Positions 4,860 to 18,715 of a stretch of DNA of 22,047 nucleotides are shown here, one piece after another. Every line of letters starts with the position of its first letter. Within the stretch, counting starts at the first letter, position 1. The DNA is from Rotaria sp. Taxonomy: Eukaryota. Made by a program: the position numbers and the translations under genes. Below the pieces are notes generated by a model. That model was given only the letters and a program-made list of their open reading frames with translations. It did no database searches and was not told the DNA's origin. The stretch covers positions 727,027-749,073 of the forward strand of contig CAJNUA010000022.1 of NCBI GenBank assembly GCA_905330235.1, given 5' to 3'.

Positions 4860-5064
4860 ATGCCATTATCAAGTTTATCTGAAGTTGTCCCAGATAAAGT
4901 GCATGTTTTACTTTCACCAGAACGGTTTGTAATTGAAGTTCCACGAGGTTTATATCATTCAATGGCAATAATAATGCTTATTGTTTGGTATATTTCATCA
5001 GCTGTAACATTATTTTCAAATAAATATATATTAAGTCATTTAAATGGTGATGCTTTTTCATTGG
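4860..5064 (+). CDS. SLC35E-like / TPT-family nucleotide-sugar (solute) transporter, exon 1
   Basis: Starts at ATG 4860 (MPLSSLSEVVPDKVHVLLSPERFVIEVPRGLYHSMAIIMLIVWYISSAVTLFSNKYILSHLNGDAFSLG). A hydrophobic TM helix follows a short N-terminal tail. Donor is GTATTG at 5065, phase 1. Confidence 0.75.
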
Positions 5065-5139
5065 GTATTGAAATAGAAAAATAAAAACATACTTTTCTTT
5101 TAATTAAAATTTCTTTTATTTTTCTCTTTTTAAATAAAG

Positions 5140-5406
5140 GTACCAATCAACTTGTTATATCTGTAATAAGTGGTTATATTCAAATAAAATTTATAAATAA
5201 ATATCATAATCAATTAGGCAAAAATCCACTTATTATCAAAAATGCATATCGTGATATGATGTTTATTGGTGCCTTTCGTTCTGTGACTGTTGTTTTAGGT
5301 TTAATTGCATTGAAATACATAGCTGTATCATTTGTAGCAACAATAAAATCATCTTCACCATTATTCACTGTTATTATAAGTCGAATTATGCTTGGAGAAA
5401 AAACAA
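5140..5406 (+). CDS. SLC35E-like transporter, exon 2
   Basis: Acceptor is aataaAG|gt. Encodes GTNQLVISVISGYIQIKFINKYHNQLGKNPLIIKNAYRDMMFIGAFRSVTVVLGLIALKYIAVSFVATIKSSSPLFTVIISRIMLGEKT. The KSSSPLF..SRIMLGEK stretch matches the conserved TPT-family segment (human SLC35E2 KATMPIWVVLLSRIIMKEK, recalled from memory). Donor is GTTAAT at 5407, phase 1. Confidence 0.8.
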
Positions 5407-5466
5407 GTTAATACAAATTTTTTTCAATATTTATTAAATATTAAGTTCAAAATGATTTTATTTTAG

Positions 5467-5587
5467 GTTATTGGACTAAATTTTCAATGATACCAATAAC
5501 AATTGGGCTTTGTTTGTGTAGTTCATTTGAATTAAGTTTTAATTTATTTGGATTTTTATGTGCATTAGGCACAAATATATTTGATTG
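5467..5587 (+). CDS. SLC35E-like transporter, exon 3
   Basis: Acceptor is ttttAG. Encodes SYWTKFSMIPITIGLCLCSSFELSFNLFGFLCALGTNIFD(C). Donor is GTAAGA at 5588, phase 2. Confidence 0.8.
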
Positions 5588-5920
5588 GTAAGATTTTTTT
5601 TTTTTTTTGAGTCTTATGAAGCATAAACTAAAACAAGGAGTGTTGAAGTATAAGACCAGATTATTAGACGTTGTAATGGACACTGGAGCAGCAATTTATT
5701 ATAAATTGTGACTAAAGATGTAAGAAATCAGGTTTTACTAGACCCAATTATACCCTTGACAAATCCAATCTAGAGAAAACTAATCCAGAATTTATTCATA
5801 TTACATTTAAAAAAATACATCAATACTTTTATTTACAAGAGAACCCCATCCGACTGATAATCTCTGTTTGAGTTCACATGTAGAATTCATAATGCAGATA
5901 AGAAGTCTGAAAGGATCCGT

Positions 5921-6264
5921 GTCATTAAGCCTTTTTTCTCGAGTTATAGCCATTTTACTGAACCTTCAATCTATTGTAGGATATACTGAGAAAAATTGCA
6001 ATAGGGAGTTTTGGCTTAAAATTCTCCTCAACAATAGTTCTCATGACTTTTATGGCATCCTGGAAATTTCAGCTCAAACGAATGTTTTCTTTCTGAGATA
6101 ACACATTTGCAAAAAACCGTTACTTTCACACAAGAATTCCATAAGAGGTATTGTTGAGGATAATTTCAAATTGAAACCCCTTATTGTGACTTCTCTTGTG
6201 ATATCATGTAATACGCTGACAGTTCACTGAAACGGTTATTACTCGAGAAAAAAAGCCTCATGAC
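5921..6264. mobile_element. Foldback / MITE-like element with ~40-bp terminal inverted repeats
   Basis: Left arm at 5921-5960 is gtcattaagccttttttctcgagttatagccattttactg. Right arm at 6225-6264 is cactgaaacggttattactcgagaaaaaaagcctcatgac. The right arm is the near-exact reverse complement of the left. No ORF. Lies inside the large SLC35E-like intron. Confidence 0.6.
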
Positions 6265-6464
6265 ACGAACTCTTTGAAGATTTTTATCTATACTATGAGT
6301 CCTAATCATTAGTAAAATATGAGCTCAAACGGAGGTTATCTAGCGAATGGCTTCCCTCGTTAGTTGACTCTACTAGTGTTTTGGATCATTTCGCTTCAGT
6401 TATGTTCTGATTGATATGATTTATAAGATAATTTGCTTCAGGGTACTTCTCTTTCTTTTCCGTA

Positions 6465-6910
6465 GTTTCTGGAGACAGCTCATCGAGAAGAATTTGAAAT
6501 TTTTAGAACCAATAGATCTTGACGTGTAAGGTAAAAGTTGTTATACACTCAGCATTTATGAGTATTATCTTCTATGAACAGCTAGGATTACAATGACCTC
6601 AATTTTCGCACCCATCTCTCCAATATGCTATGCTCGATCCAACTGAAAATTTTTTCACAAGCACTAAACACTGTTTGGGATGTATATTTGTTTTTGTTCT
6701 TTGAATAAAAAGGTCAAATTTGAAAAAAGCTTGTGCTTTTTTAATAGACCTTTTTTTTCTAAGAACTACCACAAATCAGCAGAACAATATTTTTTTTGAA
6801 TTAAAAAAATATCCATTTCAAACAGTGTATAGTATATATGAAAAAAGTTTCAGCTCGATCAGAGGCGCAAGGTCAGAGAAGCGGCGTGTTTCAGAACTCT
6901 TTTTTTCAAG
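6465..6910 (+). repeat. Dispersed ~450-bp repeat, copy 1
   Basis: About 75-80% identical to 7272-7775 over several collinear blocks: tttctggag..ctcatcgagaagaatttgaaattttt..agatcttga..aaaagttgttata.actca; ttttcgcacccat..tgaaaatttttt; ctaaacactgtttgggatg; ccacaaa.cag.g.ta..atatatgaaaaaa.tttc.gctcgatc. No ORF is conserved between copies. Confidence 0.7.
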
Positions 6911-7271
6911 AAAAAGTCAGATTGAGAAGAAAGTGTAACAATGTATAGCTTTCGATAATTTCTCAAATTTTTTAACGTTTACAGACAATTTTTCGATCTT
7001 AACACTGGCGATGGAATTTTTTGGAAAAAAATAAAATTTCTCTTTTTCTATACATTTGAACATAAATCAATCTACATTTCTATTTAATAAAAAATTTTTA
7101 TAAATCTGCGTGTTCAGAAAATTTTCAAAGCCCTATAGAGACAGAAACGTTTCTTACAAATGTTTTCGATTTTTGCAAGTTTTCCTGTAAAAGTCAATTG
7201 TGTTATATTTATTATGTGTTACTGACTATAAGAATAAAATAATCTATAGCTCACCTTAAGGTAACCCCTCC

Positions 7272-7775
7272 CCTTTCTGGAATTTCTTGAGAATGGCTCA
7301 TCAGAAAAATTTGAAATTTTCAGGGCAGATAGATCTTGATGAGTACAGCAAAAGTTGTTATAGACTCAAAATTTTCTGATGCTGTCTTCGATGAGATAAT
7401 AGAGTCCCAGCGTTGAAAAATGGCCTTATTTTTCGCCCCCATTTCTACAAGACGGTATGTTCAATTGAGCTGAAATTTATTTTTTACAGGTACTAGACAC
7501 TGTTTGGGATGGGGTATTTTTTTTAGTTCCTTTTTATCTTTTGTTGTTTCAATAAAAAAGTAAAAATACCGAGCCTACTCTAAAAAAAACGCTTGTTTCT
7601 TTTCATAGTGCTTTTCTTGTAAAGGCTACAAAAAGTCAACAAATTGATATTTTTCGAAACAAAAAAAAGTACCCACCACAAACAGTGTCTACTATATGTG
7701 AAAAAAATTTCCGCTCGATCGGACTTACTACGCCGGAGAAACGTGGGTGAAACAGTACTTTTTCTGTTAAAAATT
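7272..7775 (+). repeat. Dispersed ~450-bp repeat, copy 2 (same orientation)
   Basis: See copy 1. Track ORFs 6720..6938 and 7636..7869 fall in these copies and are not conserved. Confidence 0.7.
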
Positions 7776-8598
7776 TGATTTTGACAAAAACGCGAAACAA
7801 TTTAGAATTTTTGCTATTTTCGTTATGTAAATTTGATTTCTTCTCGAACTTTTTATAGCTTAACGACAATATTCGGGTCTCAAAATGTAGTCAGTAGATA
7901 AATACCACTTGGCAGTGTAAAACGGTCACAAAAAACCAAAAATTTTGAGTCAGGAAAGGGGTGAAGGTATCCTTAAACCAACAAGGTTCCTGATAAATGC
8001 TTTCATGAAAACCTATATTACATATGAATCTATATGTTTGAAAATACTAGGAAATCATTGTGATCTCACACGAAGTCACTCGTCCCAATGGGTTGATATG
8101 TACTCAGCAGATAGTATAATAGGCAGAAAAAAAACAAAAAAAAAATGGGTCACAAAAGAGAGGGTTGGTACCCTTAAAACCATAGAATATTTAACTATAA
8201 TCTTCAGCTTCAGCTAGGACAACTGTTTTTTCGTAGTCTCAGTCTTGACAACTTCTCTTTCCCGCGGTCATGTACATATGTAATCGTGATAGACAATGCA
8301 TGGAATGTGAAATTTAATTGTTTATTGTTCTCAGTTATGAAAAGAGGCAATCATAAGTTTATAGATAAGCTAAAAAGGGCTCTAAAATAGTATTGATTGA
8401 ACGTTTTCAACTGATCAATCGATTTTGAATTCAAATTCTGTGCCTCAAGTAAACTCAGTGAGATATGAAAAACCTCAAAAGAATCAGTTCTCCTTAGACC
8501 ATCTGTTCAGAGTTATAGACATTGTACTAGAATTTTAGATTCTGGCTTAATATAAATTAGGAAATTGAATAATATTATTTCGATCCGAGATTTTGCTT

Positions 8599-8813
8599 AC
8601 AGATAGGCCTATTTGTCAGTAAAATGTCTTGAAAATTTGAGCTCAAGAGAATGTTTCCTTCCCAAGATATTAAAGTCTCAAAAATCACTTATATTCGATC
8701 GAAAGATGTTAGAATTTTCTGATTTTTTGAAACTTTAATGTCTTGGAAAGGATATGTTCTTTCAAATATGAAATTTTCAGAGCATTCTACTAACAAATAG
8801 ACCTATCTATGGG
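8599..8813. mobile_element. Second foldback / MITE-like element, related to 5921-6264
   Basis: Arm 8599-8646 (acagataggcctatttgtcagtaaaatgtcttgaaaatttgagctc) is the reverse complement of arm 8771-8813 (gaaattttcagagcattctactaacaaatagacctatctatgg). It shares cattttactga and gagctcaa[ag]aGAATGTTTyC blocks with the first element and with 6068-6100 and 6320-6350. Confidence 0.55.
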
Positions 8814-9148
8814 TAAAGTCTCAGATTGAAATGCTGTCATCTGATTTGTTGGTATATACAAAGCCAGACGCTAAAATTTCAGTAAAATGCCTATAACTCT
8901 GGATAGAAAGACGAAGAGAATTTATCTTTTTGGTGCCTTTTAAATCTCAATAGGGTCTACTTTATGCATAGTGTTCGAATTCAAAAGCGACAGGTCAATT
9001 GAAAACGTTTCTTCATAAGTATTGAGTATATACAATATTGGTTTTAATCGATTTGTTAAATATTTCGCTCTATTAATAATAGGAATTCATTTATGTTTCA
9101 TATTTTTTATTTTACAAACATTGTAATAATAGAATATTTTTATTTTAG

Positions 9149-9406
9149 TTTACAAAATGTTTATTCAAAAATATTAATTAGCGGTGAACATTATCGTTAT
9201 TCAGCTGTTGAATTACAATTTTGGACAAGTCTTCTCGCATGCATTTTTCAATTGCCTTTACTTGTTTATTATGTTGATGTTCCATTAGCTTTAAAATTAA
9301 CTTCTAAAACATTAGCCTTTTTATATATTTTTAATGGACTTCTTTATCATATACAGTCAGTCGCTGCTTTTGCTATAATGGCTTACATATCTCCAATAAC
9401 ACATAG
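9149..9406 (+). CDS. SLC35E-like transporter, exon 4 (follows the 3.56-kb intron)
   Basis: Acceptor is tattttAG at 9147-9148. Encodes (C)LQNVYSKILISGEHYRYSAVELQFWTSLLACIFQLPLLVYYVDVPLALKLTSKTLAFLYIFNGLLYHIQSVAAFAIMAYISPITH(S). This joins in frame with exon 3 to recreate the conserved ..LQNxxSKxxL.. TPT segment. Donor is GTAAAA at 9407. Confidence 0.8.
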
Positions 9407-9464
9407 GTAAAAAACGATAGATAAGTCTTTTTTTGTGTTTATAATTAATTTGTTTTTTAATTAG

Positions 9465-9666
9465 TGTTGCAAATACGATTAAACGAGCGTTGTTAATATG
9501 GTTGTCGATTATTATATTTCATAATCCGGTGACATTTTTAAGTGGTGCAGGAACATTTATTGTTATTTTTGGAGTTATCATATATAATGAAGGAAGAGAT
9601 GTAGAGAAAAAGCCTGGGATATTAAATAGTGATAAGACTGCAATGCTTACATGGCGGCATGTTTAA
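9465..9666 (+). CDS. SLC35E-like transporter, exon 5 (terminal)
   Basis: Acceptor is ttaattAG. Encodes SVANTIKRALLIWLSIIIFHNPVTFLSGAGTFIVIFGVIIYNEGRDVEKKPGILNSDKTAMLTWRHV*, with TAA at 9664-9666. The SVANTIKR..L..NPVT motif is the hallmark C-terminal TPT/SLC35 signature. Confidence 0.85.
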
Positions 9667-10969: not shown

Positions 10970-10994
10970 ATGGCAGATTCAAAAGTTACTGGTG
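10970..10994 (+). CDS. MVP: Major vault protein paralog A, exon 1 (short coding 5' exon, MADSKVTG)
   Basis: This is the only ATG that can be joined in frame to exon 2 (GTAAGA donor at 10995, 56-nt intron, phase 1). The exon-2 frame is open upstream but lacks an ATG. The start assignment is an inference. Confidence 0.5.
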
Positions 10995-11050
10995 GTAAGA
11001 ATTTTAATTTCTTCTTTTGTTCGTATTTAGTTCTACATCTTTAATTTTAG

Positions 11051-11192
11051 TTTACCGGGTTCATCCTTTTTATTATTTACATGTTCTTGATCAAAATAAA
11101 AATGTAACTCGACTTGAAGTTGGTCCTCAAACATTTGTTAAACAAGATCATGAAAAAGTTTTACTTGGGCCAGAACGAATGTTAATAATTCC
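11051..11192 (+). CDS. MVP: MVP paralog A, exon 2
   Basis: Encodes (G)VYRVHPFYYLHVLDQNKNVTRLEVGPQTFVKQDHEKVLLGPERMLIIP(P). This matches the MVP N-terminus (human [36 protein letters not shown]). Donor is GTATGT at 11193, phase 2. Confidence 0.9.
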
Positions 11193-11251
11193 GTATGTTT
11201 AAATACTTTCAATTTAATGAAAAGAAAACTATTTTTTTGAATAATATCTAG

Positions 11252-11535
11252 TCCTCGTCATTATTGTGTTATTGAAAATCCAGCTGTTCGTGACAAAAAT
11301 GGCAAAGTTGTTATCGATGCTAATGGTCAAGTTAAATTATTACATTCAGATGTTGATATTCGATTTTCTCAAGAACCATTTCCTCTTTATCCAGGTGAAA
11401 CACTTAAACAAGCCGTAACACCATTGAAAGTTATTGAACCTAATTGTGCATTACGTCTTCGTGCGGTTCTGGATTTTATTGATGATGAAGGCGAGCAATT
11501 TCGTGCTGGAGATGAATTCCTTTTTTATGGACCAG
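11252..11535 (+). CDS. MVP: MVP paralog A, exon 3
   Basis: Encodes [94 protein letters not shown](G). Human has [38 protein letters not shown]. Donor is GTTAAA at 11536, phase 1. Confidence 0.9.
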
Positions 11536-11598
11536 GTTAAAAAGAATAAATTTAAATTTTATTAGTTAATAATAAAAATTTGAATTTATTTTTTCTAG

Positions 11599-11825
11599 GA
11601 ACTTATATTCCACGTAAAGAAGTTGGTGTTGAAGAACAAATAAAAGCTGTTACTCTTAAACCAAATGAAGCTGTTCGTTTACGTGCTAAAAAGGAAATGA
11701 TCGATCGTGATGGAGTTCAACGGGAAACAGGTGAAGAATGGCTTAATCGTACTAATGGTTCATATTTACCATTAGCTTATGAAGAGGTTGTTGCAACAGT
11801 TAAAGCCTATGTATTAACTGATAAA
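11599..11825 (+). CDS. MVP: MVP paralog A, exon 4
   Basis: Encodes [76 protein letters not shown]. Donor is GTATGA at 11826, phase 0. Confidence 0.9.
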
Positions 11826-11886
11826 GTATGAGTGTTTAGAAACTGTTGAATTGGTTTTTTTTAATGATAGATTTATATTATTTTAG

Positions 11887-12012
11887 AAAGCTCTTCATGT
11901 TCGAGCCTTACGTACATTTGTTGATTCATTTAAACGTAGACGTCTTCATGGAGAAGAATGGTTAGTATATGCTAGTGATGCTGAATCATATATTCCAGAT
12001 GTTTATGAAGAG
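11887..12012 (+). CDS. MVP: MVP paralog A, exon 5
   Basis: Encodes [42 protein letters not shown]. Donor is GTAGAT at 12013. The following intron carries an (AT)n tract. Confidence 0.9.
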
Positions 12013-12016
12013 GTAG

Positions 12017-12032
12017 ATATATATATATATAT
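12017..12032. repeat. (AT)8 microsatellite inside MVP-A intron 5
   Basis: The sequence atatatatatatatat lies immediately after the GTAGAT donor. Confidence 0.85.
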
Positions 12033-12072
12033 GTTTAATTCATAGATAGAAGATAATTGGGAAAATATTTAG

Positions 12073-12183
12073 GTTGTTTGTGTTGTACCTGTAACTGTAT
12101 TAAATTCACGTCAATATTGTGTTATTCTTGATCCAGTTGGTTCCGATGGTAAACCACAACTTGGAAAGAAAAAACTTGTTAAG
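12073..12183 (+). CDS. MVP: MVP paralog A, exon 6
   Basis: Encodes [37 protein letters not shown]. Human has [26 protein letters not shown]. Donor is GTATGA at 12184. Confidence 0.9.
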
Positions 12184-12239
12184 GTATGATAAATGACAAT
12201 TATCTGATTTAATTGACTTAATCATTTTCTTTTTTGAAG

Positions 12240-12362
12240 GGAGAAAAAACATTCTTTCTTCAACCTGGTGAAAAATTAGCTAAAGGTATTCAAGATGTCT
12301 ATGTTCTTGAAGAAGATGAGGGACTTATTCTTCGATGTACTGAATCATTCAAAGAAGATGGA
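12240..12362 (+). CDS. MVP: MVP paralog A, exon 7
   Basis: Encodes [41 protein letters not shown]. Human has [34 protein letters not shown]. Donor is GTAAGT at 12363. Confidence 0.9.
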
Positions 12363-12420
12363 GTAAGTTTATTCTTTGATTTTTTTTAATCAATAATATA
12401 TCTCTTTTTGTTCATTATAG

Positions 12421-13008
12421 AAAGAATTACGTAATCCTGGTGATCGTTGGATGGTTCGAGGACCAAAAGATTATATTCCAGCTGTTGAAGCTGAAGTTGT
12501 ACTTCGTCGTAAAGCTATACCATTAGATGTTAATGAAGGAATTTATGTTCGAGATGTTAAAACTGGTAAAGTTCGATCGGTTATTGGTAGAACATATTTA
12601 TTGACTGAGAATGAAGAACTTTGGGAAAAAGAATTACCTAAACAAGTCGAACAACTTCTTAATCAAGATGCTCGATGTTTTGACGATAAATCATCACAAA
12701 CAGCACCCATACCACCAAGAGATAAATCAAAAGTTATTGCATATCGTGTTCCACATAATGCTTGTGTACAAATTTATGATTTTAAATCTAAAAAAGCCCG
12801 AATTATATTTGGTCCTGAACTTGTTATGCTTGGACCAGATGAACAATTTACAGTTTTAAATTTATCTGGTGAAAAACCAAAGGTACCAAATAAAATTCGA
12901 GCTATTTGTCTTTTAATGGGACCAGAATTTTCAAGTGATGTTGTTACAATTGAATCAAGTGATCATGCTCGACTTTCACTTAGACTTTCATATAATTGGC
13001 ATTTTGAA
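12421..13008 (+). CDS. MVP: MVP paralog A, exon 8
   Basis: ORF track 12451..13035 gives ..[120 protein letters not shown]. Donor is GTAAGA at 13009. Confidence 0.92.
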
Positions 13009-13054
13009 GTAAGAATTGTAGTATTAAGAAAATAAAACATATTTATTTTTTTAG

Positions 13055-13369
13055 ATTAATAATCGTAATGATGAAAAAGAAGTTACTCAACTTTTTTCAG
13101 TACCCGATTTTATTGGTGATTTCTGTAAAGCTGTAGCAGCTAAAATTCGTGGTACTGTTGCTGGTATTTCATTTGATGACTTTCATAAGAATTCAGCAAA
13201 AATTATTCGAACTTCCGTATTTGGTCTTGATGAAAATAAACATGTGAAAAAAAGACTTGTTTTTCCACAAAATAATTTGGTTCTTACATCAATTGATATA
13301 CAAAGTGTTGAACCAGTTGATCAAAGAACACGTGATGCACTTCAAAAGAGTGTTCAATTAGCTATTGAA
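13055..13369 (+). CDS. MVP: MVP paralog A, exon 9
   Basis: Encodes [105 protein letters not shown]. Human has ..[74 protein letters not shown]. Donor is GTAAGA at 13370. Confidence 0.92.
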
Positions 13370-13428
13370 GTAAGATAAATTCTATTGATCTTTCTTTTTT
13401 TGTAGTAAATATTAATGGAATTATTTAG

Positions 13429-13460
13429 ATTACAACAAATTCACAAGAAGCCCAAGCAAA
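13429..13460 (+). CDS. MVP: MVP paralog A, exon 10 (32-nt micro-exon, [11 protein letters not shown])
   Basis: Acceptor is attatttAG. Donor is GTAAGT at 13461, phase 2. Human has [15 protein letters not shown]. Confidence 0.85.
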
Positions 13461-13516
13461 GTAAGTCGAATCGAAGGAAAAATAAAAATATATAACTTGA
13501 ATTTTCTTTTCTCTAG

Positions 13517-13590
13517 ACATTTGGCTTCACGAACAGAACAAGAAGCAAAAGGTCATTTAGAAAGACAAAAAATTGCTGACGAAGCTGAAG
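13517..13590 (+). CDS. MVP: MVP paralog A, exon 11
   Basis: Encodes (K)HLASRTEQEAKGHLERQKIADEAE. Donor is GTAGAA at 13591, phase 1. Confidence 0.85.
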
Positions 13591-13643
13591 GTAGAATTTC
13601 ATGATATATGAAATTGAAATATTATACTTTTACATTTGTTTAG

Positions 13644-13778
13644 CCGAAAAGGAACGTCGAAATCTATTGCAACTTCAAGCTCTATCAGCTGCTGTTGAAT
13701 CCACTGGTCAATCACGTGCTGAAGCTCAATCACGAGCTGAAGCAGCTAAAATCGAGGGTGAATCTGCTGTCAGTCAAG
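13644..13778 (+). CDS. MVP: MVP paralog A, exon 12
   Basis: Encodes [45 protein letters not shown]. Human has [33 protein letters not shown]. This is the coiled-coil cap-helix region. Donor is GTATGT at 13779. Confidence 0.9.
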
Positions 13779-13842
13779 GTATGTTATATATAAATATAAT
13801 ATATTTCATCAATAAAATACGCATGTTTTTTCATTTTTATAG

Positions 13843-14066
13843 CTACACTTCGTGCAAAAGCAGCAAAGATTGAATCTGACACTGAACTATTACGTTTAAT
13901 ACAAGCACGTGAACTTGAATTAAATTATTCAAAAGTAACATCTGATTTGGAAATCGAAAAAACAAAACGATTAGCTGATATTGAAATTGAAGAATTTAAA
14001 CAACATGTTTCTGCCATCGGTCCAGAAACTATTAAAGCTATTGCTACTAGTGGGCCAGATAATCAA
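13843..14066 (+). CDS. MVP: MVP paralog A, exon 13
   Basis: Encodes [75 protein letters not shown]. Donor is GTAAGA at 14067. Confidence 0.9.
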
Positions 14067-14126
14067 GTAAGATTTGTTTTTAATAAAAAGTTTTGTTAAG
14101 ATTTACTTAATATTGTGATTGTGTAG

Positions 14127-14240
14127 GTTAAACTTCTGCAAGCTCTTGGCATTAAGTCAACTTTGATTACTGATGGACGTAGTCCAATTAATCTTTTCAA
14201 TACTGCTGTTGATTTAGTTGGTGCATCAACGAGTTCATAA
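14127..14240 (+). CDS. MVP: MVP paralog A, exon 14 (terminal)
   Basis: Encodes [37 protein letters not shown], with TAA at 14238-14240. Human has [32 protein letters not shown]. Confidence 0.9.
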
Positions 14241-14265
14241 TACGATTCGGAAGAACAAATTAAAA

Positions 14266-14271
14266 GAATAA
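14266..14271 (+). promoter_or_regulatory. AATAAA polyadenylation signal for MVP-A (a second AATAAA lies at 14278)
   Basis: A hexamer lies 26 nt past the stop codon. Confidence 0.5.
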
Positions 14272-14695
14272 AAAAACTAATAAACTTTAAAATTCATATG
14301 TCCAGTTTAGACCCGAGATTAGTCAGATTTTTAGAATAAAAGCCCATGTTTTGTTATAAGAAGAAACATAAGATTCTGTTTAATACTAATTTTTTTAATG
14401 TATTTGTGTGATCTCTAAAAAAACAAATTTTACAATCGAAATAAAATAATTTAAAAAGTTTGTTTTATATCGGTCATCTTTATTGATAGCAATAATCGAC
14501 TTAGATTCAATCAATATTTTTAAAAATTCAATTTTTCAATTAGAATGAAGTTGAAGAAATATTTCATGTGCCAAAGTAATCGATCAACTTGCCGAATTCA
14601 GTTTAACTTAGATGATAGAGGAATAAAGTAATATATCATGTTACTTTACCACAGACGAGATCGATTCTACAGGTGGTGGATAGAAATGTGCGGAA

Positions 14696-14730
14696 CCAGT
14701 CTCGGTCCTGCTCTCGGTGACCGAGACTGG
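14696..14730. other. Perfect 12-bp GC-rich stem / 11-nt loop hairpin in the convergent MVP-A/MVP-B intergenic spacer
   Basis: ccagtctcggtc-ctgctctcggt-gaccgagactgg. The arms are exact reverse complements. It is embedded in a locally GC-enriched ~120-bp island (14640-14760) in otherwise AT-rich DNA. Confidence 0.6.
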
Positions 14731-15645
14731 GACTTGGATTCGAAAAACTAAAATCAATGAATCCTAGAACTAAAAAAATTGATCCGGCATATCTTTAGAG
14801 TGACAGAGCTAAAAGGTTTGGATAGGTTCAAAAAACTTTTTCTGCTTTCATTAGTTTGATAGATTGCAGTAACACTACATGCCTATTAAAAATCTTGAAC
14901 AATCAACAAACTGACAATGTCATATTTCTTTTTATGGACAGGTCTGCTTCATGATTTAACTGCTTTTCAGTAGATTACGTCAGAAATTCTTCTTTCAAAG
15001 ATCGGAATTTAATAAGCATAAACATTCGCATGTGTTTTTGTTATTTATCACTGCTATACACTGCAAAATGTGAGTTCGAAATAACAAATACGAACCGATT
15101 TTATCTCTATACTGTAGTGTAACTACTATATACAAAAGACTATCAAGACTTGTGTTTGGCATATATTCGATCAATTTTATTTATCTATTAACAATATTTA
15201 ACATATTTTAATTGTACTAAAAGAATCATAGTTGTGAAAAGTTAGTCTTAGTCCTGCCGAGCAAAGAAAAATAGTTGGTATATCGTAACTCCTACGATCA
15301 AATGAATTCTATTTATTTGAATAGAAAAACACGAATAAATTTTCGAAATTTTGACGAGCAATGAGAAAAATGAACAACAAACTTTTCAAGGTTAAGATTA
15401 CATATCTACGGTTGCGGCTACTTTTAACCGCTTATAAATACATTTATATGACATTAAAATGAAGAAAAAGAACAATTCGGTAGTGCAAAATTCTTTCGGA
15501 TGAAAACCATCTTAGTTTATTATTCATACATGAGCTACAAAATAATTAAAGTGAAATTGTAGAATAAAATTGATAATATGAAAACAGAAAAGGACGGACA
15601 ATGTTATTGTTATTTTTTTCTCTTGAAACAAGAAACAAATTTGAC

Positions 15646-16034
15646 CTAATCTTTGTGTTCAACATGGTAGCCAGTAGGAATCTTAGAATTTTTGATTGCA
15701 GTGGAAGTTAAACCACCTAAAAGTCCTTGTCCAAAACCCATTAGATTAATAGGTGTATGTCCATCAGTAACCAACATTGATTGAAGACCAAGTGCTTGTA
15801 AAAGTTTAACTTGTGTATCTGGACCTGCAGTAGCAATCGATTGAATTGTGGATGCACCAATAGATTCAACTTGTAATTTAAATTTTTCAGTTTCAATGCT
15901 TGACATTTCACTTTTCTTTGATATTTCTAATTCATTTTGTTCACGTACAAATTTGATTTCAGCTTCACGTGCTAATTTTAAACGTGATAATTCAGCTTCA
16001 GCTTCGATTTGTGTAGCTTGAGCCTTGAGAGCAG
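15646..16034 (-). CDS. MVP: MVP paralog B, exon 8 (terminal; stop TAG at 15646-15648)
   Basis: ORF track 15646..16080 gives [128 protein letters not shown]. Confidence 0.9.
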
Positions 16035-16090
16035 CTAAATAAAGCACAACAAATAAATTTTTATTGTAAAACAAAATCATTATTCATTAC

Positions 16091-16331
16091 CTTGCTCAAC
16101 AGCTGCTTCTCCTTCAATTCGAGCTGATTCAGCACGACTTTGTGCTTCAGCTTTAGCTTGACCTGTTGATTCAACAGCAGCTGATAAAGCTTGTAATTCA
16201 AGAAGTTGTTTTCGAACTTCTTCAGCATTAGCTTCATCTTTTATACGTTGCCGTTCCAATAATCCTTTGGCCTCTTGTTCTCGGCGTGAAGCTTCATGTT
16301 TCGCAGCTGCTTCTTGTGAATTTGTTGTAAT
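16091..16331 (-). CDS. MVP: MVP paralog B, exon 7
   Basis: Encodes [80 protein letters not shown]. Donor is GTAATG, phase 1, at the same position as A intron 12. Confidence 0.88.
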
Positions 16332-16389
16332 CTAAATAATTCCATTAATATTTATTATAAAAAAGAAAGATCAACAGAGTTTATCTTAC

Positions 16390-17293
16390 TTCAATAGCTA
16401 ATTGAACACTCTTCTGAAGTGCATCACGTGTTCGTTGATCAACTGGTTCAACACTTTGTATATCAATTGATGTAATAACAAGATTATTTTGTGGAAAAAT
16501 GAATTTGTCTCTTATATGTTGATTAGCATCAAGACCAAATACTGATGCACGAATGATTTGAGCTGAATTTTTATGAAAATCATCAAATTGTGTTCCAGCA
16601 ACAGCACCACGAATACGTGATGCTATAGCTTTAGCTGCATCACCAACAAAATCTGGTACTGAAAAAAGTTTTGCTGCTTCTTTTTCATCATTAATATCAG
16701 GTATTTGAAAATGCCAATTATATGAAAGTTGTAGTGAAAGACGAGCATGATCAGCTGTTTCAATAACAATAACATCAGTAAAAAAATCTGGTCCAAGAAG
16801 TAAACAAAGTGTTTGAATTTGATTAGCTTTTTTCGGTACACTACCACTTAATGAAAGTAATGTAAAATGTTCATCTGGTCCAAGCATAACAAGTTCGGGA
16901 CCAAATATAATACGTGCTTTTTTAGCTTTATAATCATAGATTTGTACACAAGCATTATGTGGAACACGATATGTAACTAATTTTGATTTATCACGTTTAG
17001 TAAAATTTGTATTTGAAGTTGTTGTTTGTTGTTGAGATTGCGATTTATCTGATGCTTGATTACGTGTTAGAACATTTCGTTCAGCTAATGCATCACGTGA
17101 TAACAATTCCTCAACTTGTTTAGGTAATTCTTTTTGCCATAATTCTTCATCTTGTGTTAACATATACGTTTCACCAATGACTGCTCGTACACAACCAGTT
17201 TTTATGTCACGAACATATATACCTTCATTTTCATCTAGTGGCATTGCTTTTCGACGTGTAAGAACTTCAACTTGTGTTGGAGGAATATAATCA
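16390..17293 (-). CDS. MVP: MVP paralog B, exon 6 (covers A exons 8+9 without the intervening intron)
   Basis: ORF track 16381..17244 gives ..[169 protein letters not shown]. Donor is GTAAGA at 16389. Confidence 0.9.
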
Positions 17294-17344
17294 CTAAAAG
17301 TTATAATAATAATTTAAAGTTTTATTCAATAATAAATCTCTTAC

Positions 17345-17529
17345 GTTGGACCACGAATCATCCATCGATCACCGGGATTTCGATTAACATTAGCGTGTTC
17401 ATCTTTAAATTCTTCAATACATTTAAGAATAACACCTTCATCTTCACCTAATATAAAAACATCTTGAATGCCATTTTCAAGTTTTTCACCAGGTTGAAGA
17501 AAGAATGATTTTTCACCCACGACAAGTTT
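17345..17529 (-). CDS. MVP: MVP paralog B, exon 5
   Basis: Encodes [61 protein letters not shown](T). Donor is GTAAGA, phase 2. This intron position is absent from A. Confidence 0.85.
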
Positions 17530-17593
17530 CTAGAAAAAAAATTCCAATAATTCAATTTTCCCTATATGACAAAAAACAATATGTGTGACATAC

Positions 17594-17860
17594 TTTTTTT
17601 CCTAATTGTGGTTTTCCATCAGCAACTGGATCAAGTATAACACAATATTGACGAGAATTCAATGTTATTACATCAACAGCAGCAACTAATTGTTCATATA
17701 CACTAAGAATATGTGTTTCAGTGTCGGCGAGAGTTACAAGCCATTCTTCACCATTCATGCGTTCTTTACCGAAATTGTCTGTAAAAGTTTTTAATGCACG
17801 AATATGAAGAGCTTTTTTATCGGTTAATACAAAAGCATTTTCTACAGAAACAACAGTTTC
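17594..17860 (-). CDS. MVP: MVP paralog B, exon 4
   Basis: Encodes [89 protein letters not shown]. Donor is GTATGT. It partly overlaps ORF track 17552..17758. Confidence 0.88.
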
Positions 17861-17912
17861 CTAAAAATTTCAAAATTTTTAATTAAAATATGCAAATAGA
17901 ATTTAAACTTAC

Positions 17913-18221
17913 ATATGCAAGAGGTAAATAAGCACCGGTTTTTTTAACTAACCATTCTTCACCAGTAACACGATGTTGACCTGCACGATCAATAATTTCT
18001 TTTTTTGCACAAAGTCGTATAGCTTGATTAGGACCAATAACTGTAGCTCGAATTTGTTCCTCAACACTAACTTCTTTACGAGGAATATAAGTAGCTGGTC
18101 CTTCGAATAACCATTCATCACCAGCACGACGTTGTTCCTTTGCTGTTTCATCTTCAAAATCGAGTACAGCTTTTAAACGTAATGCTGAATTAGCAGGAAC
18201 AACTTTTAATGGAGTAACAGG
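17913..18221 (-). CDS. MVP: MVP paralog B, exon 3
   Basis: ORF track 17883..18287 gives [103 protein letters not shown], then GTAAGT. There is no intron at the A exon3/4 site. The ORF-track frame and my base counting differ by 1 nt near 18181-18240, so the start is ±1. Confidence 0.85.
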
Positions 18222-18295
18222 CTGAACAAAACCAAAAGAATTATATATCAAATTAGTTTTATTTCTGTCAATTGAAAAAAGTTTCAACTTTATAC

Positions 18296-18464
18296 CTGAC
18301 GAAGAATTTCACCGGGATAAAGAGGAAATGGTGCTTGATCAGGTTGAGCAAGACGAATATCCAAATCAGCATGAATAAGCTTTGCTTGTCCATTTTTATC
18401 AAATTGAACATCTCCAGCTTCATTACGTACTACGGGTGATTCAATAACACAATAATGGCGTGGT
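18296..18464 (-). CDS. MVP: MVP paralog B, exon 2
   Basis: Encodes [56 protein letters not shown]. Donor is GTATAA. This intron has no counterpart in paralog A. Confidence 0.85.
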
Positions 18465-18524
18465 CTAAATTATTCAAATCATTATTTTCTTTGTTTGTTT
18501 TTTTTATGTAACAAATTTACGTAC

Positions 18525-18715
18525 GGTACTGTAATCATCTTTTCTGGTCCAACAGTGACTGTTTCATTATCTTGCTTAATAAATGTTTTTGGACCGATTT
18601 CGAGTCGTGTAACATTTGTATTTTGATCCAAAACATGAATATAATAATAAGGAGGAATTCGATAGAGTGGACCAGAACCACTTTTATTATCAGTTGTAGC
18701 TGTTGTTTTACTCAT
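18525..18715 (-). CDS. MVP: Major vault protein paralog B, exon 1
   Basis: ATG at 18715 (minus strand). Encodes [64 protein letters not shown](P). Donor is GTACGT, phase 2, at the same position as the A exon2/3 junction. ORF track 18482..18715. Confidence 0.9.

Follow-up and report, generated by a model that had tools for sequence, protein, structure and literature searches.

Ancient paralogs with strongly different intron maps are already known from bdelloid rotifers: introns of the alpha-tubulin paralog classes vary markedly from class to class in how many there are and where they lie, and the monogonont copies carry none (Eyres et al. 2012, PMC3464624). Here we describe a related case, two adjacent major-vault-protein (MVP) genes (A and B) lying tail to tail in a 22,047-nucleotide (nt) stretch of the Rotaria sp. 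contig CAJNUA010000022.1 (positions 727,027 to 749,073, hereafter the window), one with 13 introns and the other with seven. The discordance between them is mostly ancestral-intron loss from B combined with independent gains in both copies. As the overall history we consider it very probable that an ancient inverted duplication was followed by loss of ancestral introns, new gains, a static layout and short conversion tracts. Like alpha-tubulin, MVP presents ancient bdelloid paralogs whose intron maps are stable within each class across genera, an intron-poor or intronless monogonont copy, and conversion as an invoked process. Unlike alpha-tubulin, the MVP paralogs are adjacent and convergent, their differences can be polarised via three outgroups, and conversion takes place between divergent paralogs (66% protein identity) and not between near-identical collinear copies.

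More generally, rotifers are fast-evolving spiralians in which far fewer of the ancestral animal introns survive than in lineages that evolve slowly (Martin-Duran et al., bioRxiv 10.1101/2020.05.07.078311). The MVP data follow the same trend, no ancestral intron being left in the Brachionus gene and hardly any in bdelloid B; that study, however, dealt with single-copy orthologs and lineage-wide rates, and has no counterpart of the contrast seen here between a conservative paralog (seven ancestral introns) and a stripped one (one). Duplicated genes have also been found to diverge in exon-intron structure faster than orthologs do (Xu et al. 2012 PNAS; Castillo-Davis et al. 2004; both as cited in PMC3464624). 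As a general rule, the intron content of paralogs comes to differ by loss, gain and small shifts, and the MVP pair is a case of such divergence. The surveys behind it reportedly covered plants and Plasmodium, unlike the present metazoan example, in which at least 17 new positions occur across the bdelloid MVP genes compared. Lastly, ectopic conversion between inverted duplicates is known from the concerted evolution of palindrome arms. The features in common are an identity higher between paralogs of one genome than between orthologs of different species, non-coding sequence included, short tracts with sharp edges, and recurrence in independent lineages; the MVP tracts differ in being tiny (~130-190 nt) and restricted to the best-conserved block of coding sequence, the rest being paralog-specific.

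The phenomenon thus belongs to a known category, the exon-intron divergence of old paralogs in a lineage with documented turnover, and is a tidy example and no surprise; the first-pass annotation of this DNA had called the discordance unusual. Only the conversion hotspot and a cluster of intron positions at the LSYNWHFE motif, both described below, go a little beyond expectation. What the locus offers is a cleanly polarised multi-species case in which one copy stayed conservative and the other was stripped and repopulated, so that duplicates of a single gene now have barely related intron maps.

Gene models and polarity of the introns

Both genes were modelled by enumerating frame-preserving GT/GC..AG junctions between open-frame segments, which were then assembled. 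Paralog A starts at the ATG at 10970 and its stop codon ends at 14240 (839 residues, 14 exons, 13 introns), and paralog B runs on the opposite strand from the ATG at 18715 to a stop codon ending at 15646 (884 residues, eight exons, seven introns).

10970..14240, plus strand: MVP paralog A (gene model, Pfam domains, Rotaria MVP matches)
15646..18715, minus strand: MVP paralog B (gene model, Pfam domains, P0079 match)
14241..15645, no strand: 1.4-kb spacer separating the facing 3' ends of the two genes

Each protein is a full-length MVP, with the Pfam domains Vault, Vault_2, Vault_3, Vault_4 and MVP_shoulder all far over their cut-offs and 65-71% identity to MVPs across animals. The A protein is 86-94% identical to Rotaria MVPs, the B protein matches the P0079 annotation of Rotaria sp. 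Silwood2 residue for residue, and the two share 66.5% identity in pairwise alignment. By these matches the window is bdelloid rotifer DNA, probably of Silwood2 itself or of a nearly identical source.

Polarity was read from a matrix of position and phase on one alignment, using as outgroups the exactly mapped gene structures of Lottia (12 introns), Saccoglossus (12) and Nematostella (16); the single intron of the Brachionus calyciflorus gene was mapped likewise. This is the comparison with orthologs that the first-pass annotation had proposed for telling gains from losses, and it does separate them. The introns are as follows (a caret marks the junction).

10995..11050, plus strand: A intron 1, phase 1, SKVTG^V; Rotaria/Adineta A only, a gain
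11193..11251, plus strand: A intron 2, phase 2, MLII-P^P; common to B in Rotaria/Adineta, in neither Didymodactylos genes nor outgroups
11536..11598, plus strand: A intron 3, phase 1, FYGP^G; ancestral (the three outgroups and both Didymodactylos genes)
11826..11886, plus strand: A intron 4, phase 0, LTDK^K; ancestral (every outgroup as well as Didymodactylos A)
12013..12072, plus strand: A intron 5, phase 0, VYEE^V; ancestral (Lottia, Nematostella)
12184..12239, plus strand: A intron 6, phase 0, KLVK^G; ancestral (Saccoglossus, Nematostella, Didymodactylos A)
12363..12420, plus strand: A intron 7, phase 0, KEDG^K; ancestral (Lottia, Saccoglossus; in Nematostella one gap-ambiguous column off)
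13009..13054, plus strand: A intron 8, phase 0, NWHFE^I; confined to A of Rotaria/Adineta, 10 nt downstream of the ancestral SYN-W position (TG^G)
13370..13428, plus strand: A intron 9, phase 0, LAIE^ITTN; in all bdelloid A and B genes and not in outgroups, 89% identical to B intron 6
13461..13516, plus strand: A intron 10, phase 2, EAQA-K; ancestral (all three outgroups and Didymodactylos A)
13591..13643, plus strand: A intron 11, phase 1, DEAE^A; specific to the A clade, Didymodactylos A included
13779..13842, plus strand: A intron 12, phase 1, AVSQ^A; common to B in Rotaria/Adineta only
14067..14126, plus strand: A intron 13, phase 0, PDNQ^V; ancestral (Saccoglossus, Nematostella)
18465..18524, minus strand: B intron 1, phase 2, KMITV-P^P; coincides with A intron 2
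18222..18295, minus strand: B intron 2, phase 0, GEILRQ^P; ancestral (Lottia, Didymodactylos A and B), lost from Rotaria/Adineta A
17861..17912, minus strand: B intron 3, phase 0, LPLAY^E; confined to B genes of Rotaria/Adineta, a gain
17530..17593, minus strand: B intron 4, phase 0, LGKK^K; confined to B genes of Rotaria/Adineta, 12 nt upstream of the ancestral KLVK^G
17294..17344, minus strand: B intron 5, phase 2, RGP-T; confined to B genes of Rotaria/Adineta
16332..16389, minus strand: B intron 6, phase 0, LAIE^ITTN; found throughout the bdelloids, its sequence homogenised with that of A intron 9
16035..16090, minus strand: B intron 7, phase 1, AVEQ^A; coincides with A intron 12

Seven of the 13 A introns occupy ancestral animal positions according to the outgroup matrix, and six are bdelloid-specific: LAIE^ITTN throughout the bdelloids, MLII-P^P and AVSQ^A (common to B in Rotaria/Adineta only), DEAE^A in the A clade, and SKVTG^V with NWHFE^I in Rotaria/Adineta A. 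In B the proportion is reversed, with GEILRQ^P as the single ancestral intron among seven and the other six bdelloid-specific, three of them common to A and three private to Rotaria/Adineta B. Since the outgroup gene structures polarise the A/B differences in this way, the discordance resolves into differential loss plus new gains. None of the three positions shared by A and B is present in any outgroup.

The intron inventory itself had been given correctly in the first-pass annotation. The counts of 13 and seven were reproduced by junction enumeration; the A/B alignment leaves only the three shared positions already named (MLII-P^P, phase 2; LAIE^ITTN, phase 0; AVSQ/AVEQ^A, phase 1), and B introns absent from A were again found after GEILRQ, LPLAY (15 codons before LTDK^), LGKK (four codons before KLVK^) and RGP (phase 2). 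All 20 introns are GT-AG, AT-rich and, as reported before, short, measuring 46-64 nt in A and 51-74 nt in B. Spliced dynamic-programming alignment with the Lottia MVP as guide recovered 12 of 13 A introns and all seven B introns at identical coordinates; the one missed lies eight codons from the N-terminus, outside the local alignment. Similarly, the Rotaria socialis A annotation (P0002), from a genome annotated with RNA-seq of the same species (PMC7943196), has the same 13 positions as A in the window.

Three environmental contigs (L013, L014 and L015, from JGI samples 3300002341 and 3300002343) contain MVP coding sequences flanked by untranslated regions and look like spliced mRNAs from a metatranscriptome. 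L013 is A-type, intron-free, 86% identical to A and a single open reading frame of 841 residues; its alignment is gap-free across all 13 A junctions, and blastn blocks break at the modelled intron borders. L014 is likewise A-type, 86% identical to A and intron-free. L015 is B-type (89% identical to B), with the peptides of all seven B junctions contiguous. An alternative donor for A intron 6 at 12178 is excluded, as L013 reads KKKLIKGEK. A 44-nt 'intron' reported in L015 by the spliced aligner was spurious, an artefact of the one-base frameshift in that contig, and the junction-peptide search settled the matter.

If the discordance were an annotation artefact, cryptic introns would be expected in B at A positions or the reverse, an outcome that the first-pass annotation had itself named as refuting. 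We found no evidence for it: B exons are open frames across every A-only intron site and A exons likewise across B-only sites, aligned residue for residue, and cryptic introns are ruled out because each gene is an unbroken frame across the other's private sites. Together with the agreement of guide-independent models and the fit of the intron-free contigs to all junctions, this makes an artefact next to impossible.

Age of the duplication and tempo of turnover

In neighbour-joining trees (Kimura distances, 300 bootstraps) the A genes and the B genes each form a clade with 100% bootstrap, and Didymodactylos, Adineta and Rotaria are represented in both; monophyly of A+B received 79%, and the rotifers including Brachionus group at 100%. 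The convergent pair is kept in Didymodactylos carnosus (L004), R. socialis (L005/L006) and Adineta vaga (L012). Both in R. socialis and in the chromosome-level assembly of A. vaga it sits between TPT-transporter and Sad1/UNC genes. A second, more divergent convergent pair, A2/B2, is found in Silwood2 (L011), with B2 77% identical to B. Adjacency is therefore conserved and the same species set recurs in both paralog clades, as in an ancient inverted duplicate made at the DNA level. D. carnosus is the deepest divergence known in the class (PMC7943196, Nowell et al. 2021). Because the pair occurs in Didymodactylos, Adineta and Rotaria, the duplication predates this deepest known bdelloid split; it is older than crown bdelloids and than the separation of A2/B2 from A/B.

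The A. vaga pair has 13 and seven introns at positions identical to those of A and B in the window. R. socialis and the A2/B2 pair show a 13-versus-8 layout, A2 having the 13 introns of A and B2 the seven of B plus one. Hence the 13 A positions are unchanged in A. vaga, R. socialis and A2, while the seven B positions recur in A. vaga, Adineta steineri (seven introns), R. socialis, B2 and a solitary B copy (L007); the extra B intron, at LSY-NWHF, is found in R. socialis B, B2 and L007. In Didymodactylos, A has 14 introns and B nine, at positions that differ substantially from those of the Rotaria/Adineta genes. The intron layout has been static since the common ancestor of Adineta and Rotaria. 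Turnover took place between the duplication and that ancestor, and separately in the Didymodactylos lineage, and then halted; it is old and the positions have since been static, because the layouts match in A. vaga, the window and A2/B2. Of the first proposal, an old duplication in a lineage of rapid turnover, the age thus stands (clades at 100%, synteny in four species, outgroups) and the word 'rapid' has to be qualified, bdelloid turnover at this locus being an old burst followed by long stasis.

Some side observations concern the family as a whole. In A. steineri (L010, 13000-23063) no A-like sequence lies within 10 kb downstream of B, where A is expected, perhaps because this copy or haplotype has lost the gene. 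The bdelloid MVP family is expanded: Silwood2 (L007/L008, L011) harbours A2/B2, a solitary B-type gene and several more B-type clusters (86-89% identity), and in the solitary gene the LGKK^ intron has grown to 692 nt. Outside bdelloids, the B. calyciflorus gene (L001), which lost all ancestral introns, has its one 66-nt intron at PDFST^D (phase 1), a position found in no other gene examined. Five MVP genes of A. vaga are reportedly up-regulated upon irradiation or rehydration (PMC10809525). Paralog-specific intron maps could help to assign expression data to the correct MVP copy.

Gene conversion and the origin of the shared introns

Among the introns at shared positions that were compared, LAIE^ITTN is the only A/B pair with similar sequences. 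Its A and B copies are 89% identical in the window, 74% in R. socialis and 100% in A. vaga (57 of 57 nt), against ~0.53 identity between orthologs of different species and a shuffled null of 0.52 +/- 0.05. The similarity extends into flanking coding sequence, and a further tract lies upstream in A.

13263..13451, plus strand: conversion tract, A side, ~95-96% identical to B 16309-16497
12723..12850, plus strand: another stretch of high identity, A side, matching B ~16863-16990 at ~92%, and at 0.85-0.9 in third codon positions

The 13263-13451 tract takes in the end of one exon, LAIE^ITTN in full and 22 nt of the exon that follows; its 3' edge is abrupt, with identity falling below 45% beyond it. 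Paralogs of one genome thus resemble each other more than orthologs do, non-coding sequence included, in discrete tracts with sharp edges, and the homogenisation of LAIE^ITTN indicates recurrent short-tract ectopic gene conversion between the inverted copies. Over codons ~570-675, the similarity of A to B across species exceeds that of either to its Didymodactylos ortholog, and the Didymodactylos paralogs show the same pattern. Fixed A/B diagnostic sites outside the tracts have not been exchanged, and a diagnostic-site scan for long conversion tracts turned up none, with exchanged sites only here and there. Some of the elevated third-position identity over codons 435-650 may therefore reflect shared AT-biased codon usage; firm evidence of conversion is limited to the two short tracts and the LAIE^ITTN intron.

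Conversion able to carry an intron, as seen at LAIE^ITTN in three species, raises the question of whether the shared introns were copied from one paralog to the other instead of being older than the duplication. Such an origin would fit their distribution: MLII-P^P and AVSQ^A are found in both Rotaria/Adineta paralogs and in neither Didymodactylos paralog, VPDF^GD is the mirror case, being confined to both Didymodactylos genes, and codons ~570-675 evolve in concert in both lineages. However, no excess A-B similarity was seen, when looked for, in the MLII-P^P or AVSQ^A introns, nor in their flanking exons across species. Parallel loss is also common here, as VYEE^, PDNQ^ and DFHK^ were each lost at least twice, and an origin before the duplication followed by two losses is about equally parsimonious. 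We therefore hold copying of the shared introns to be a minority possibility. The Didymodactylos intron concerned, VPDF(I/V)^GD, is in phase 1 and occurs in no other gene examined; Didymodactylos A and B are also unusually alike over their first 40 codons.

A separate observation concerns the invariant LSYNWHFE motif (window 12985-13060 in A, ~16700-16720 in B), where four intron positions fall within 14 nt across the loci L003, L004, L005, L007, L009 and L011. The outgroups have the intron at TG^G, both Didymodactylos genes at AA^T (3 nt upstream), some Rotaria B genes at A^AC (one nt further upstream) and Rotaria/Adineta A at GAA^ (10 nt downstream); B in the window and the Adineta B genes have none. 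This cluster, with its shifts of 1, 3 and 10 nt, is either a hotspot of gain or a case of true sliding. It is a better candidate for sliding than the LGKK^ and LPLAY^ pairs considered below, though indistinguishable from repeated gain. One could speculate, with the odds rather against it, that the lineage-restricted shared introns (MLII-P^P and AVSQ^A; VPDF^GD and AA^T in Didymodactylos) were each gained once and copied to the neighbour, and that the LSYNWHFE intron truly slid by 1, 3 and 10 nt. If so, the locus would be a natural record of intron transfer between paralogs and of sliding in an animal. The conversion seen at LAIE^ITTN already shows that an intron can pass between diverged paralogs, which bears on the use of shared positions as evidence of common ancestry.

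Intron loss in B, possible sliding and neighbouring features

Under the history we favour, a DNA-level inverted duplication would have occurred in the bdelloid stem, before the deepest known split and the A2/B2 divergence, in a gene that probably carried roughly ten ancestral animal introns and at least one new one (LAIE^ITTN). The A lineage would have retained seven of the ancestral introns, and the B lineage would have shed nearly all, GEILRQ^ alone being kept in B. A run of four adjacent introns (LTDK^, VYEE^, KLVK^ and EDG^) would have gone in the B stem, before Didymodactylos diverged; block loss of this kind is what would be expected from recombination of the resident gene with spliced cDNA. 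Both copies would then have taken up new short introns at lineage-specific sites, and short ectopic conversion tracts appear to keep homogenising the most conserved coding stretch and the intron embedded in it. The order of these events, and the mechanisms of loss and gain, are what we infer; the gene models, intron positions and their polarity, the synteny, the static layout and the intron homogenisation were observed directly.

The first-pass annotation had offered another origin for B, as a partly processed copy that regained introns later; this would be a retrocopy of A made from the cDNA of an incompletely spliced transcript. It is true that B is without six of the seven ancestral introns kept in A and that the four adjacent ones are gone from every B-clade gene, yet a later cDNA-mediated conversion of a resident gene explains such a block loss equally well. 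A retrogene would lie away from its parent and lack the parental introns at its origin. B, by contrast, is tail to tail beside A in a layout conserved in four species and keeps the ancestral GEILRQ^; in Didymodactylos B both GEILRQ^ and FEGP^G survive, along with an intron 3 nt off the ancestral SYN-W site; and the bdelloid-specific LAIE^ITTN intron is common to A and all B genes. Conserved adjacency, seen in all species examined, and the ancestral introns of B-clade genes leave a retrocopy very improbable, although no search aimed at a poly(A) remnant or target-site duplication was made.

There is also the related proposal that near-coincident positions are the same introns after sliding: LGKK^ and KLVK^ (12 nt apart, i.e. 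four codons), LPLAY^ and LTDK^ (45 nt, 15 codons), and RGP-T and EDG^ (~47 nt). In each pair B has the new site without the nearby ancestral one and both never occur in one gene, as sliding would predict, and the LSYNWHFE site shows that small shifts do occur in the MVP family. However, random placement would readily yield such distances (P = 0.22 for three or more of four within 16 codons, P = 0.40 for one or more within four codons), the intron sequences retain no residual similarity, and shifts of 45 nt are far outside the range that sliding models are known to cover. The A-side positions are ancestral, and the B-side ones are limited to Rotaria/Adineta B genes. Sliding of these introns is thus unlikely, and we retain loss from B with independent gains after the inverted duplication.

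Some points weigh against this reconstruction as well. The transcript-like support comes from environmental contigs of other origin and not from RNA-seq of this genome. The grouping of A and B to the exclusion of Brachionus was obtained by neighbour-joining at 79% bootstrap, so a slightly older duplication is possible. The NCBI taxonomy puts Didymodactylos in Philodinidae, and its place at the deepest split follows our own trees and Nowell et al. 2021. The Didymodactylos B model is a spliced alignment made in this analysis and not an annotated protein. Finally, no sequence signature of an intron gain or loss mechanism was found at the locus.

The surroundings of the pair present two minor features. 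The spacer (14241..15645) shows no conservation against R. socialis or A. vaga. It is otherwise AT-rich and contains, at 14696-14730, a perfect G+C-rich inverted repeat of 12 bp (CCAGTCTCGGTC / GACCGAGACTGG, 11-nt loop); an Rfam scan of the window, this repeat included, gave no match. Upstream of A, the TPT/EamA transporter gene (exons 4860-5596 and 9137-9628) is interrupted by an insert of ~3.5 kb (~5600-9130) that is missing in R. socialis and A. vaga, where the matching exons lie ~40 nt apart. The insert has no long open reading frame and holds many inverted repeats of 50-165 nt along with direct repeats spaced 800 nt, and is probably a cluster of foldback elements, or elements resembling miniature inverted-repeat transposable elements, within an intron.

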